Part shown: piece by piece, positions 21,799 to 32,724 of the stretch
Numbering within the stretch: the stretch's first letter is position 1
Layout: the number at the start of each line of letters is the position of its first letter
DNA from: Paraspadella gotoi
Lineage: Eukaryota > Animalia > Chaetognatha
Direction of reading: 5' to 3'
DNA length: 64,000 nucleotides
Assembly (NCBI GenBank): GCA_051294375.1
Contig: CM119270.1
Span: forward strand, 15,870,081 to 15,934,080
Position numbers and translations under genes: made by a program
Notes under the pieces: generated by a model
What the model saw: only the letters and a program-made list of their open reading frames with translations
Told to the model about the DNA's origin: nothing
Database searches by the model: none

Positions 21799-23453
21799 TT
21801 ACGATCGTGACTCTTAAATTGAAAGCCTTGGAGATCGTGGATTTTGTTTCCTTTGAAGATTTTGGGAAATTTGTTCGAAATCAAAACGGAGCCGAGTTCT
21901 TCCGCGTCAGGTGTTTTTCCCATCTCAAACGTCCCAAGCGGCGTCGACGTTGTCCTCCCTGCTCCGCCGGCCGCTTCCGCTGCACGGCTGACGTATCCGC
22001 CGCAGCGTCTGAAAAACTCTTTCGCGTTCGGAGCTGCTTTGTTATTCCGCGGTGACGGCCTGCAAAGGACGCAGAGGACGCCCGGCCGCGCGTCGGCTCC
22101 GCGCGTCGTCGGCGTCGTTCGGCGCGCCGCAGAGTCCGGGGCGTCCTCTGGGGCTGTCGGCGGGACGAAGTCGCCAACTGCGGCGTCGTTGTTGCAGTCG
22201 TTGTCGTTGTTGTCGTCCGCAATGAAAAGGTGGGACCTCCGTTTCTTTGTGAACGGACGGCGAAGGTTCCGGTTCGTGATCGTCCCTGTGAAACCAATCA
22301 CGGTTATTTTACTAATGACCCTTCGATGAGAATTTAAAATAATTTAAAAATCAAGTGATTAATCCGTTTTAAAGAGCTTTTCGATGCAAGAGCTGGAGAA
22401 ACACCCCCCCCCCGCATGCAATATAGGACGTAGACTGCAGAGGCGAAAGAAGAGGAAAGAATTCTATACTGAAAATTTCTCTTCCGTTAAGCAAAAAAAA
22501 AAAAATTTTAAAAAGAAAAAAAAAACGAACGAAACGAAATTTCCCGAAAACGCGTCCCCCCCTCTTCCGATATCACCCACCCCCTACTCCTTCACCCCCC
22601 CACCCCCTTCCATAAAAAAAACTGTTGACGCGCAAAAAAGTCGTAAAGTTTAGACGATCGGCTTTTCGCACCTGCCGATGCATTAAAGAGCAGGTTTGCC
22701 ATCTGCGCTAACAGGTTTAAATATCAGAGAGGGTGATATACGGGTGATATCCCAGTCAAAAAGCCTAAAAAGGTTATGATTTAGGTTAAATTGTACAAGA
22801 TTAGAAAGGGATTTAAATTAATAAATTAGCTGTTTGTGGACGGGAAAAGGTGACGTCTAAACTGACGATTCATGTGGAGATTAAGGAGACAAAGCCTCTT
22901 GTTGCGGTCACCTATGCTGATGAGTTCCGTCAATAAAAAATCTTTCACGTCTCATAAGAAATCATCATCTTTTTCGGTCGCCATGGACGATAAACATCTC
23001 GCTTCTGCCCAATTCTCCTCAAACATAATACATATAAACCTACATATGAATACACAATGCAAATAACTACATACGCATATCTACAATATAAAAACTAAAA
23101 CTACATATAAAACACTTCCTGTGAATTTGGCAATTCCCATTCAGCCCTTTTCGGAGGTCGTTGCCTCATTTGCAATACTTGGTTTGATTAACGGATTCTT
23201 TACAGTTTCTTCACCACTTTTCTCTCTCTCTCTATCTCTCTCTCTACTTCTCTCTCTCTCTCTCTCTCTCTCGTCTTCTCTCTCTCTCTCTCCTCTCTCT
23301 CTCTCTCTCTCTCTCATCCAACCTGCATCTTGAGGCCTGACCGAGTGCGAGATCTCATTCAACTTCAGAGGGAGAAGAATTTGTACGGCCCTTGCCACGC
23401 CCCCCACGCGAGGACTGGACATCCGGGCGCCGCTTGCAGACCCGAGGGAATCG
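21799..23453 (-). CDS. ECT2: ECT2-like RhoGEF, last three exons (23323-23453, 22912-23004, 21799-22285), noisy copy contiguous with the DH exons
   Basis: Indel-rich copy of 8453-10104 with the same splice sites. Confidence 0.75.
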
Positions 23454-24597
23454 CTGAGAGAGAGGAGGCGAGGAGGAAGGAGGAGGAGAAGGAGGAGGAG
23501 GAGGAGGAGAAAGGGAAAAAAGGAAACAGTTGAAGAAAAGGAGAAAAGAAAATAATGAGTGACAAGAAATAAATAATGAAGAAAACAGATGATGCGATAA
23601 GTCGGCATCGGATGAGAGAGAAACAATTGATACAGGATGGTGAAAGGAGAGGAGAAAAAATGGGGAGAGGGATACGAGAGAGAAAGGATGTCATAGGGAA
23701 AAGGGTTGCGGGGGATTTTAGAAATTCATTGGTTTTCGGGGTTTCCTAGACTTTAGATTTGGAGATATTCGAGGTTTCGGAACCTTAGGGTTTTTTGGGA
23801 TCTCGGTGTTTGGGCTTCGGGGTTTTGGAATCTCAGGGTTTCAGGGTTCGGGACCTTTGGGTTTCAGAATCTCAGGGTTTTCAGGGTTTGATCAGGAGTT
23901 TGGGGTTATGGGTTTCGGAATTTCAGGGTTTCGGATTCCTGGGGTTTGAGTGTTCGGGTTTCAGAACCTCGGGGTTTGGAATATCGCGGTTTTGGGTTTT
24001 GGAATCTCAAGGTTTGGGGGACTGCCATCTCCGTTTTCCGATTTCTCTGGCTCAAACTCAATTTCGATAAAAAACAGATTTCGTCCCTGGGAATTTACCC
24101 CCGAGGTCGGTCCTTTTTCGTCGTCGTCTCCGTTTTGTCGTCGTCGTCTCGTCGTCGTCTCGGCTCGTGTTCTTCTGTTGTCGTTGTTATCGTTGTTGTC
24201 GTTATCGGGTATTTTTTCCTCACTGTCGTTTGATTTTTTTCGCCATCGTCTTTGTCTTCTGCATTTTGGTCATCAGACTTTTTATGAAGCAGAATTAGTT
24301 CTTATTCAGGACAATTACGTCGTCGTACGTCATCGTCTGTGCGTCGTGTCGTCGTTCTTCGTCGTTCGCGTGTCTATAAATCTCGCTCATCGTCTGTGGT
24401 CGTCTCTGTCGTTCATTCGTCGTCGTGCAATCATCGTCGTCGTCCTCGTAAGTTATCGTCTTGTGTCTTCGTTCCAATCTCACTCCTGATCCGCGTCTCG
24501 ATTTTCCTTAAGAACGAAAATCATAGAGAATCTTTATCGTCTTTTTTCTTCGTCGATGTCATTGATCAGTCCCGCGACTCGTCCGCCTCTGCAGGGA

Positions 24598-24870
24598 TTT
24601 ATCGTTGCATTATGACAAGGTTGCGAATGGTCATTATTATCGTTTTGTCATTGATGACAAGGTTGCGGATGTTCAATTATTATCGTTTGTCATTGATGAA
24701 CAAGGTTGCGTATGGCATTATTATCGTTTGTCATTGATGACAAGGTTGCGGATTGCATTATTATCGTTTGTCATTGATGACAAGGTTGCGTATGGCATTA
24801 TTATCGNNNNNNNNNNNNNNNNNNNNNNNNNTTTGTCATTGATGACAAGGTTGCGGATGGCATTATTATC
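24598..24870. repeat. 40-bp tandem repeat with an internal palindrome, interrupted by a 25-N gap
   Basis: ttatcgtttgtcattgatgacaaggttgcggatggcatta, with units at 24721 and 24761. Confidence 0.9.
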
Positions 24871-25319
24871 GCGTTTTTAGTTTTGACAGTCAGTTTCATC
24901 TCGGTGGTCTTTTTTTTTTTAAATTGTTGATTCATGATCATTGTTGTCTTTAAATTTATTTTAGTATATTAAAAGTTTTCTAAGAACGTTAAGTTGATTA
25001 ACTGACATTTTTATTTTCGTATTGTTGTTAACTTTCTCACGTTTTCGTCGAGTTTATCCATTAGAGATTATAAATAAATTAAAAAGAAAAATTAATGAAT
25101 AAAATTAATGATACCAGACTAATTAATTCTTCTAACGCCCGAGAAAGTCAGTTCGTCAAAATATCCCTCTCAACCACAATATCGTACGATGACCGCGTCA
25201 GCGACATTGTCATTGTCATCCAACTAATTGGCATTGTTGATTGATATCCAAATCATTGTCGATGCCATCCAAGTCTTAACTATTGCCATTGCCATTGAAG
25301 TCCTTGCCATCGAAATCAT

Positions 25320-30519: not shown

Positions 30520-30581
30520 TTTTGTCGCCGACTTTTTCCTGTTTTCCATCGATCGAGGTTTCGTCGTCGCCAGCCTCTCTC
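30520..30581 (-). CDS. ECT2: ECT2-like RhoGEF, small linker exon before the DH domain
   Basis: ttttccgcag| acceptor, |gtgaat donor; 62 nt, phase 2 in and phase 1 out; REAGDDETSIDGKQEKVGDK. Confidence 0.65.
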
Positions 30582-32593
30582 CTGCGGAAAAGGAGAGGAT
30601 GAAAGGAGAAAAAGGAGGAAGGAAAGGGGAGAAAAGAAGGTAGGAAAAGGGAGAAAATAGAAAGAAAAAGTGGGGAAATAGTGGGGGAAAAGAGGAAGAA
30701 AAAGATAATAAAAGGGTGAGAATAGGAAGGAAAAGAGAGGAGGGGAAGAAAGGAGAAAGGAAGGAGGAAATGAGGAAAAAAGAGAAGAAAAAGGATGAGG
30801 GAAAAAAGAGGAAGAGAAGAAAGGGAAAGATAAGAAAAGGAAAAAAAAACATTGAAGAAGCAAACGGGATATAAAAATTATTTAGAAGTAAGTCAGAAAA
30901 GGTAGTGTGAATTGAGCAAGGTTGCAAAAAGAAGAAAAAAAGAGAAAAAAAGGAAAGAAACAGAAAAAAAAAGAAAAAGGTTAAAGAGATAATAAAGTAG
31001 GTCAGAAAAGGTAATGAGAGAAGGTAAGGAGAAAAAAGGGTAAGGAATGGCCGTTTGGGGCGGAGGAGGGAGGAAAGCAGGATATAAGGAAAAGACGGTT
31101 ATTGTTCCACATTTTTTGCAATCTTTTCTCCTTTTTTTTTATATTCCCTTTTTTTTTATTTCGCTTCTGATAAGAAAATCTCATCCGCCAAAGACCATCA
31201 GCCAAACACCATCCGCCAAACTCGTTTCACCAACAGCAATACAATTTCCACTTGCCTCCGTCACCTCCATCTCTTTCTTTCTTTTTTTTTCTTTTTTTTT
31301 CGTCAACTTTTCTGCTTCTTTTTTCATTCATCTTTACTTCTTTTCTTTCTCCTCAATGTTTCCATTCTCCTTCCACACCGGAAAATATGGATGCGTCTCC
31401 GTCTCTCTCTCTCTCTCTCTCTCTCTCTCTCTCTCTCTCTCTCTCTCTCTCTCTCTCTCTCTCTCTCTCTCTCTCTCTCTCTCTCTCTCTCTCTCTCTCT
31501 CTCTCTCTCTCTCTCTCTCTCTCTCTCTCTCTCCCTCCCTCCCAAAAAATTAGAATGAGAAAGAGAGTTTTAGAAAAGCGCCGTAACTCTAGTTAATTTG
31601 TCGCTTTGTCTTTCTCACTAAAAATACTACGCGTAAAAAAAACCCTCTGGCTTTGTATGTCCGTCTATCTGTCTATCTGCCTTCACATTTCCCCTCACTC
31701 GACCCAACCGATTTCTCCCCCTTTCTATCAATCCTCCCGATTTCGCCGAAAACGCTTTTTCCCCTTTTTCTTGATTTCTTCGTATCTACTTTCCTTTTCT
31801 CGGCCTTTTTCCTTCTTACTTACTTATGCCACACTTGTTCTATTTTTATTTTTATTCTCTTCTCTTCTCTTTTCTTTTTCGCGGTTCTTTTTATTTCGTC
31901 TTCTTCCTCTACCCTTTCCCCTTACGTTTCGGAGGCTCTGTCCCCCCCAAAAAATACTATCGTCAAGGCGTCTCAAGGTTAAATTTACTGCTGATTTTTA
32001 TGTAAGTTCCTCGACTGTCTTTCTCTCTCATCAACTTTTCTTTTTTTTCTTTTTTTCTTTCCTCTCCTCTCCTTCTTCCTCCCTCCTCTCTTTCCCCCCC
32101 CCAAGTTCTCATATTGCTAGCCGCCGCTTGCCGCTGCTTGCCTCTGTTGAGATCAACCGCAAAGAAAAACCTAAATATATTTCTGACTTCAGTGATTTTT
32201 TTTTTCCTTAATCGAGTTTCATTCGTGAATGAAAAGTTCAAAGGAGCGAAGGAACTGTGAGAACGGACGAGTTTAGGGTTCAAAGATGAGATACGCCTTC
32301 GAACCGTGAAGCGTGATAGGTTCAGCAAAGGTGAAAATGTCCTTTAAAGTTGCTTCCAGGTTGAAAAGTCACCGGAAGACGTTTAAACCTTCACAGATTG
32401 AGCCTTTCTCGGGGATTTTGCGGGGGCGGCGGAGACTAAATTGTTCTCACTGCTGTATTTTTACACTTTGACTTACTTTTACGTGTACTTATCCTTTCAA
32501 TCTCCTACCCCCCTCCCACATCTTCCACCTCTCCCCCTCCCTTCTCCCACCCTCTTCCACTTCCTCCCCTCGCCTCTCTCCTCCCCCTCTAAC

Positions 32594-32724
32594 CTGTAAA
32601 AGTAATAGAAATAACCTCCCCCTGCGAGAAGAGAGAGAACGACTGAGCGCCAAAAGTTGTCGAGGAAGTAAGAGAGGAAGATGACGCCGACGACGACGAC
32701 GAAGGCCACGCCTCCCGTCTCCAT
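32594..32724 (-). CDS. Candidate 5' coding exon with two hydrophobic segments, phase-compatible with the ECT2-like gene
   Basis: gtcgccATGG start context; METGGVAFVVVVGVIFLSYFLDNFWRSVVLSLLAGGGYFYYFY, then AG|gttaga donor (phase 2). Confidence 0.6.

Follow-up and report, generated by a model that had tools for sequence, protein, structure and literature searches.

In a reverse-strand gene of the chaetognath Paraspadella gotoi, found in the 64,000-nucleotide stretch of contig CM119270.1 that was analysed here (the window), an exon encoding a hydrophobic N-terminus is spliced onto ECT2-type DH exons without BRCT repeats. Judging from sequence, the product is likely to be a membrane-anchored Rho activator that would be on without the normal mitotic signals, resembling an engineered ECT2 mutant. 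ECT2 is a conserved cytokinesis switch that, once truncated at the N-terminus, becomes constitutively active and deforms cells. No integral-membrane Dbl GEF and no ECT2 bearing a transmembrane (TM) segment was found in the open-access literature.

The hydrophobic exon is spliced to the DH exons

A single 1750-nt contig from run X9 contains, in order, exon 1 (32594-32724; contig letters 1-146), a 62-nt gap (letters 147-208), exon 3 (29687-29911; letters 209-433, with 0 differences) and exon 4 (27169-27332; letters 434-598). The gap fits only exon 2 at 30520-30581, as just one of the 17 candidate 62-nt AG..GT/GC stretches yields the two-mismatch overrun that is observed. The RNA support comes from contigs of one run in one study, with exons 1, 3 and 4 matched directly and exon 2 inferred. 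The run record does not state RNA; X9 was treated as such because the GT-AG joint 27332/29687 (CT..AC on the forward strand) is present in X9 alone and absent from three DNA runs. The X9 contigs leave most intron stretches uncovered, thin out upstream past 33326, and show neither transcript starts nor expression levels.

The initial annotation had exon 1 ending in phase 2 and exon 2 in frame with the DH exon, and both assignments hold: exon 1 runs to a GT donor in phase 2, and exon 2, a short charged linker with a CAG acceptor and a GT donor, keeps the frame into exon 3. Splicing of the hydrophobic exon elsewhere, for example to 32452, had been named as the result that would count against the anchored architecture, and the RNA contig joins it to the DH exons. 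A separate 66-aa protein made via 32452 was rejected, no joint to that position or elsewhere being found among the joints listed. The ten exons sum to 1596 nt, or 531 aa plus a stop, so that the 1656 nt (551 aa) first proposed was 60 nt too long. They predict a contig of 1752 nt; the observed 1750 nt therefore leaves no space for another large exon.

Exon 1 carries the start codon and a predicted membrane anchor

The proposed ATG at 32724 is confirmed by short-read DNA contigs from three samples (X1, X4 and X5). Record 1 of X1 (2132 nt) aligns to 31560-33590 without a single differing letter or gap, while the X4 and X5 contigs span the ATG and their nearby listed differences lie solely upstream, at 32740, 32769 and 32771. 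An in-frame stop stands 59 codons 5' of the ATG, at about 32901, where an RNA contig covers 32772-33326 unspliced. X9 contigs also cover 32586-32739, leaving 32740-32771 (poly-G and polymorphic) uncovered, and 32725-33326 is likely a 5' UTR contiguous with the ATG, with three upstream ATGs. Between that stop and the start codon there are only two AGs (32881 and 32843), both within an unbroken RNA contig, and with the ATG itself backed by DNA, an internal position for exon 1 was rejected.

The initial annotation had entertained that internal position because a copy near 44690 lacks the ATG, a caveat that can be dropped. This copy (approximately 44558-44695, also on the reverse strand) differs from the confirmed one by 181 inserted and 46 deleted letters and 133 mismatches (55 transitions, 78 transversions); since the differences are mainly insertions, we read it as unpolished long-read noise, an assembly duplicate and not a second gene. 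A tandem paralog at 44 kb was rejected on the same grounds, and because exons 2-4 are single in the window. Gap columns make up about 7% (406/5928) of the comparison between duplicate copies.

Exon 1 comprises 43 codons plus 2 nt, with its sequence backed by DNA contigs, and its translation (METGG...FYYFY) is laid out as the initiator Met, a hydrophobic segment 1 (residues 4-21), the loop DNFWR and a weaker segment 2 (residues 27-43), followed by RR. Mean Kyte-Doolittle hydropathy is 2.46 for segment 1 and 1.13 for segment 2, which holds a GGG run; the best 19-residue windows reach 2.29 and 0.94, respectively. Of the double TM anchor first proposed, the first helix stands as strongly hydrophobic whereas the second is marginal, and 'one or two' TM helices is the better description. 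Hydrophobicity alone is not rare, as a 19-residue hydropathy of at least 2.2 is reached by 8 of the window's 189 open stretches of 43 codons that begin with ATG. What lifts exon 1 above chance is its RNA join together with a coding-type third-position bias: GC3 is 0.70 in frame against 0.56 and 0.35 in the other frames, with DH/PH exons at 0.70-0.76. Exon 1 matched no Pfam family, and an Atlas search returned three clusters at 0.79-0.80, which is chance level. Single-sequence AlphaFold2 of exon 1 alone gave one continuous long helix with no hairpin, a result that says little on topology. We predict that segment 1, and perhaps segment 2, crosses the membrane and is not cleaved.

Which membrane this would be bears on function. 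Short helices and hairpins are typical of ER/Golgi and lipid droplet proteins, and the uncharged segments of exon 1 are short (19 and 17 residues), aromatic-rich and separated by a 5-residue loop. The anchor might accordingly sort the GEF to the ER, Golgi, mitochondria or lipid droplets, where Rho or Cdc42 would serve trafficking and not cortical contractility. We consider this unlikely, as a small basic patch (6 K/R in the last 30 aa) lies at the C-terminus where the ECT2 polybasic cluster sits, although the likeness was judged by eye in noisy sequence and its profile match is not significant. The plasma membrane is slightly preferred over the ER/Golgi.

No BRCT repeats or ECT2 linker in the window

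The initial annotation saw no BRCT-like exon in the window, and tblastn and profile searches agree. With 49 pre-DH regions of ECT2 relatives as queries, tblastn against the window gave two HSPs at E<=1, the better at 0.16, and the best match to a profile built from these regions (E 0.17) was a low-complexity intron stretch. There are no BRCT repeats between the ATG and the DH domain on the RNA contig, and in a search for the S-loop/NLS linker the pre-DH part of the gene scored E 0.87 against the ECT2 pre-DH profile. The names ECT2, RACGAP1, KIF23 and pebble have 0 occurrences in three supplementary files of PMC12460157.

Exon 1 might still be an alternative first exon of a canonical ECT2 locus, with distant upstream BRCT exons that dividing cells would splice to exon 2 or 3. 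Contigs lose rare variants and would hide a minor isoform, and low-depth intron contigs left the main contig unbroken. Yet exons 1 to 4 lie on that contig without interruption, the 31 kb upstream hold no BRCT or linker exon and instead an unrelated kringle gene that ends in a stop, and the divergence of the DH exons far exceeds that of the nearest canonical-type fragments. We regard such an arrangement as highly improbable. A kringle-TM-RhoGEF fusion was also rejected, as the kringle gene stops at about 54689 and an in-frame stop precedes the ATG.

The DH domain is of ECT2 type and retains E428, N608 and F621 equivalents

The proposed ECT2 identity is well founded. Human ECT2 (PDB 6l30) is the best PDB match for all three exons tested, with E values of 2.3e-6 for exon 3, 1e-9 for exon 4 (the next match having E 0.7) and 9.6e-9 for exon 6. 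Pfam RhoGEF/DH (PF00621) matches exon 3 above its cut-off (E 3.2e-8) and exon 4 below it (E 0.018), and residues 70-334 of the model give a 312-bit match to a 54-sequence ECT2 DH-PH profile. Positions 295, 475 and 488 of 6l30 are E, N and F in the gene, corresponding to E428, N608 and F621 in our own mapping, made from spacing with an offset of 133 to the 6l30 chain. E428A/N608A ECT2 is GEF-dead (PMC8385449), and F621A abolishes active-Rho binding by ECT2 (bioRxiv 10.64898/2026.06.03.729549). The E428 equivalent lies in exon 3, where the DH domain starts, and those of N608 and F621 in exon 6 (26183-26346), which encodes the DH end and the DH-PH linker. The Y625 equivalent is N, as in relatives P0010 and P0002. 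From these features the product is predicted to be an active GEF catalysing Rho exchange.

Downstream the picture is less clear. Exon 7 (25606-25688), inside the profile match, encodes the first PH strands; these match the ECT2 profile, while Pfam ECT2_PH is below cut-off (E 0.22). The last three exons are noisy: exon 8 (23323-23453; second copy open at 9974-10104), of which the first ~10 residues alone match the ECT2 profile; exon 9 (22405-22434; second copy of 32 nt at 9051-9082), assigned from splice signals and phase; and exon 10 to the stop (21799-22285; second copy open at 8453-8932), with a low-complexity insert and a short basic tail. Read in every frame of both copies, the latter half of the PH domain had no significant match in profile, Pfam or Atlas searches, and neither did exon 10. 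Inspection by eye revealed no equivalent of the CDK1 site T815, the last 45 aa holding one TP.

As assembled, exon 5 (26750-26873), which continues the DH domain, is interrupted at codons 211, 214 and 215 by stops, and its PVQR motif is readable only across two indels, in the frame given by four indel corrections to unpolished sequence. If these frameshifts were real, or if the PH domain were too eroded for catalysis, the protein would be membrane-anchored and dead or truncated, a decaying paralog or a Rho-sequestering decoy, and the unmatched second half of the PH domain and a long branch are in keeping with this. However, the four indels sum to zero, microsatellites flank the exon on both sides in an assembly as noisy as described above, exons 6 and 7 are open with N608 and F621 retained and GC3 of 0.70-0.74, and the RNA contig is within 2 nt of its predicted size. 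A dead product seems improbable.

Relatives and phylogenetic placement

The nearest sequences are marine ECT2 fragments from ENA assemblies (P0001, P0105-P0107, P0114-P0117), with 52% identity over 122 aa against <=45% for the next eleven, and they share a tree branch with the gene. Four of them form one group with it (SH-aLRT 95), in which it has a long branch (0.8 against about 0.3). In a quick tree, from which 8 chosen rows were dropped for want of a recognised DH start (a second tree dropped 4), the gene falls with the ECT2 rows (SH-aLRT 100, with one distant sequence as the only outgroup), and the gene model and P0001 lie at a polytomy outside a group of 32 rows (89). Long-branch attraction may affect this placement. 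Unlike the gene, the marine fragments have no hydrophobic N-terminus and are unbroken where it has three introns, and the longer ones have retained the post-BRCT linker of canonical ECT2 (profile E 1.7e-4 to 9e-4). A TM-grade segment precedes the DH domain in 0 of 83 relatives, and no orthologue with a hydrophobic anchor was present among 104 proteins or 10 further matches. Metagenome contig scans confirmed 0 of 598 candidates with exon 4 and 1 of 216 with P0106, an unrelated sequence at 27% (L001); a word-based search with exon 4 among longer proteins left 3 unscored candidates, which are weak evidence.

The gene is likely a fast-evolving ECT2 paralog and not the sole ECT2. Were it the only one, cytokinesis in this animal would use a membrane-fixed GEF without BRCT docking on centralspindlin, and the assumed BRCT requirement for animal cytokinesis would be overturned. 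Human cytokinesis requires membrane association and not BRCT-mediated midzone recruitment (PMC5177604), which lends this some plausibility. Against it, 54 of the 59 longer relatives have a BRCT-type Pfam domain, the nearest fragments retain the canonical linker, and deltaN-ECT2 causes rounding and contraction of interphase cells (bioRxiv 10.64898/2026.06.03.729549), hard to tolerate in all cells; we give it a very slim chance.

Proposed mechanism and comparison with known systems

The reading that we hold with moderate confidence is of an ECT2/Pebble-family paralog in which an anchor takes the place of the BRCT repeats and NLS loop, so that the protein would be permanently membrane-held, its DH domain cytosolic, loading Rho with GTP steadily and off the mitotic cue. 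Segment 1 would act as an uncleaved signal anchor and segment 2 as a return helix (forming a hairpin) or an interfacial helix. The positive-inside rule orients membrane helices, and the RR after segment 2 would place the DH domain in the cytosol under either topology. Without the BRCT repeats and S-loop the protein would escape autoinhibition and nuclear sequestration, like engineered deltaN-Ect2 (414-882), which is constitutively active and in which constitutive membrane binding damps Rho pulses (bioRxiv 10.64898/2026.06.03.729549). Activation may be incomplete, as the PH domain likewise autoinhibits ECT2 (same preprint). The anchor would substitute for regulated membrane binding through the PH domain and polybasic cluster, in line with the unrecognisable second PH half and short tail. 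The resulting Rho/actomyosin tone would be stable and non-pulsatile, set by the site of expression and the sorting of the protein; non-dividing cells are its most likely setting, with cytokinesis left to a canonical ECT2. We infer that the anchored protein could activate Rho independently of centralspindlin, as the initial annotation proposed; this independence is not assured, because cytokinesis with human ECT2 that carries a BRCT1 unable to bind MgcRacGAP still depends on MgcRacGAP (PMC5177604). A bolder proposal is that of a natural integral-membrane Dbl RhoGEF whose hairpin anchor, possibly derived from a (GTC)n microsatellite, supplants BRCT/centralspindlin and nuclear control, in its boldest form as the only ECT2, with division positioned without BRCT docking; this we think quite improbable.

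With human ECT2 (6l30), Drosophila Pebble and C. elegans ECT-2 the gene has in common the DH sequence, the DH-PH order, the E428/N608/F621 residues and an ECT2-type PH start. It differs in having a 43-residue hydrophobic N-terminus instead of BRCT0/1/2 and the S-loop/NLS linker, an unrecognisable second PH half and a much shorter tail (531 aa in total). ECT2L and ARHGEF39 are also DH-PH GEFs without BRCT repeats, and we know of no TM anchor in either; the DH domain of the gene is that of ECT2 proper by PDB match and by a tree from which ECT2L and ARHGEF39 sequences were absent. ECT2 and ECT2L group weakly (PMC5499878).

Sec12/PREB, a Sar1 GEF, and TM-bearing ARHGAP36 isoforms are small-GTPase regulators fixed to membranes by their own helix, with other folds and GTPases, and neither is a Dbl GEF. 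Closer in design are deltaN-Ect2 and membrane-targeted ECT2 (C1B, Cry2/CAAX), which likewise combine a DH-PH module with loss of the autoinhibitory N-terminus and NLS and are tethered to the membrane independently of Rho (bioRxiv 10.64898/2026.06.03.729549; PMC5177604; PMC3763371). These are laboratory-made and use a polybasic cluster, a lipid-binding domain or a light switch, whereas the chaetognath gene is natural and its anchor is predicted to be integral. A natural gene without BRCT repeats and NLS, and with its own predicted membrane helix, would be a ready-made test of permanent membrane residence, namely of whether this suffices to make a mitotic GEF a steady generator of cortical tension; the engineered-ECT2 work of 2016 and 2026 suggests that it does.

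Results

The ECT2-type gene on the minus strand (ten exons, 32724 to 21799), with its hydrophobic exon 1, is real and spliced. Exon 1 (32594-32724), which codes for 43 residues, ends in phase 2, and exon 2 (30520-30581) and the DH exons continue its frame across canonical splice sites, bearing out the phasing proposed in the initial annotation. The stretch is matched by nine sequencing runs, and the contigs of five were aligned. Record 1 of the DNA run X1 is identical to the assembly over 31560-33590. Contigs of two further DNA runs, X4 and X5, cross the ATG as well and differ from the assembly only in the intron or upstream. 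Because these DNA contigs agree across it, the ATG is real; the earlier concern that exon 1 might be internal, raised by a copy near 44690 reading cccAGGAG, is thereby settled, that copy being noise.

The joint between exons 3 and 4 has GT-AG ends and is present in a further run, X9 (RNA by guess from its label), and in none of three DNA runs; X9 therefore holds spliced RNA. A 1750-nt X9 contig (depth 36.6) aligns by its letters 1-154 to 32739-32586, with 2 other letters, and letters 209-433 and 434-598 correspond to 29911-29687 and 27332-27168 with none. We infer from the shared run, length, depth and strand that the exon 1 and exon 3-4 alignments belong to one contig. From 32739 to its donor, exon 1 accounts for 146 nt, so that a gap of exactly 62 nt (letters 147-208) precedes exon 3. 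An 8-letter overrun with 2 mismatches is expected where the start of exon 2 is set against the start of the intron, and among the 17 candidates in the interval (62-nt stretches, AG..GT/GC) just one fits it; gap and overrun together point to exon 2. The ten exons total 1596 nt. Adding a 15-nt leader and the 141-148 nt that separate the stop codon from a genomic A-run predicts a length of 1752-1759 nt, versus 1750 observed. This A-run is 26-27 nt long (21625-21650, minus strand), and its position relative to the predicted length suggests that the contig ends there. The RNA support comprises contigs of one run, with alignments covering exons 1, 3 and 4 and 15 loose ends outside those listed.

The DH part of the protein is of ECT2 type. 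Human ECT2 (PDB 6l30) is the best solved-structure match of exons 3 (29687-29911), 4 (27169-27332) and 6 (26183-26346), with E values of 2.3e-6, 1e-9 and 9.6e-9 respectively, and a protein library search gave 34 matches, the named ones examined being mostly ECT2. Searching with a profile built from exons 3 and 4 and their best match recovered 59 longer proteins, 54 of them carrying a BRCT-type Pfam domain, and 10 shorter ones. With X placed at the breaks in exon 5 (26750-26873), model residues 70-334 score 312 bits against a 54-sequence ECT2 profile, the match ending early in exon 8. Equivalents of E428, N608 and F621 are present, and PVQR can be read only by bridging two of the four indels in exon 5. 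A dead or truncated decoy appears unlikely.

A quick tree of 22 rows groups the gene, on a branch of 0.8, with four unnamed marine fragments (SH-aLRT 95); in a larger quick tree the fork between them is open. Longer members of the marine group keep the post-BRCT linker, whereas our gene is without it. Fragments P0001, P0105-P0107 and P0114-P0117 form a tight group and all stop just past RPVQ, and likely represent one long exon. This region is uninterrupted in them, but holds three introns in the gene studied here, none at RPVQ.

Neither a BRCT nor a linker exon was found in the 64-kb window, as the initial annotation had reported for BRCT. An in-frame stop lies 59 codons upstream of the ATG, inside an interval (32772-33326) covered unspliced by another X9 contig. 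We consider it very unlikely that exon 1 is an alternative first exon of a canonical ECT2 locus.

Of the double transmembrane anchor proposed initially, the first predicted segment (residues 4-21, mean KD 2.46) is strongly hydrophobic and the second (residues 27-43, mean KD only 1.13) marginally so. Both segments are uncharged, with five residues between them and RR after the second. Among 104 proteins, 83 have a recognisable DH start with at least 25 residues ahead of it; none of these reaches a KD19 of 1.8 before the DH domain (best 1.76), versus 2.29 in our gene. Exon 1 matched no Pfam family and gave no usable Atlas match. A (GTC)4 repeat encodes its run of valines; repeats of this kind occur 18 times in the window and attract many off-target contigs, so the exon may have originated from a microsatellite. 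By eye, small residues in segment 2 (S27, S31 and G35; 32613-32646, minus strand) show glycine-zipper-like spacing, which could pack a hairpin or dimer.

Assembly quality affects how gene copies are read. The window has microsatellite-rich introns and six N gaps, five of 25 N, which several near-duplicate blocks adjoin (5538-11198 versus 18848-24636 and 30700-35353 versus 42587-47360, among others). Since copies differ chiefly by indels, and transversions exceed transitions in long blocks, the duplicates are unpolished long-read copies. These indel-rich blocks are assembly artefacts, and gene copy numbers from the assembly are unreliable. Within intron 3, 28570-28725 is a high-copy interspersed repeat, where the contigs of X1 and X4 sum to a depth of 8,000-40,000 and loose ends are numerous.

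Discussion

In canonical ECT2, BRCT repeats autoinhibit the protein and also serve to bind CYK-4/MgcRacGAP in its phosphorylated form, an NLS lies in the S-loop, and the PH domain and polybasic cluster provide CDK1-timed membrane binding (PMC4552957, PMC5177604, PMC3763371). Removing the N-terminus yields a constitutively active GEF, and Rho pulses are suppressed by its fixed binding to the membrane (bioRxiv 10.64898/2026.06.03.729549). The gene described here resembles a natural version of such truncated ECT2, with the difference of a predicted integral anchor. The function of this variant is predicted: we favour, with moderate confidence, a cytosolic DH domain that would load Rho steadily, controlled by expression and sorting. 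That the protein is a GEF of endomembranes seems improbable. Contrary to the wording of the initial annotation, BRCT loss need not free the protein from centralspindlin, because BRCT1-mutant ECT2 still requires MgcRacGAP (PMC5177604); the PH domain of ECT2 is also inhibitory (bioRxiv 10.64898/2026.06.03.729549).

By titles and abstracts, the open-access literature yielded no ECT2 with a transmembrane domain and no transmembrane RhoGEF. In the accessible text of a study that surveyed the Dbl families across 175 genomes, 'transmembrane' has 0 occurrences (PMC5499878). GxcDD is anchored by a CH domain (PMC1914345), rather than by a helix as predicted here. Should the animal be an arrow worm, paralog status would fit the burst of tandem duplication in that phylum (PMC12460157); the available text and three supplements of that study contain no mention of ECT2. 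That the gene is instead the animal's sole ECT2 we regard as very unlikely.

Two neighbouring loci were recognised. A CAPS/CADPS-like PH exon (19826-20300, plus strand; PDB 1wi1, E 2e-7), convergent with the ECT2 gene, has a noisy duplicate near 6500-6990. By eye, a possible next exon with a stop at its end lies near 21100-21226, so the locus may represent a CAPS paralog that is short and truncated. The other is a gene of its own, richer in AT, which lies upstream of the ECT2 gene; its two exons (54689-55691, minus strand; Pfam E 1.2e-6 and 5.8e-12) form one kringle domain and end in a stop.
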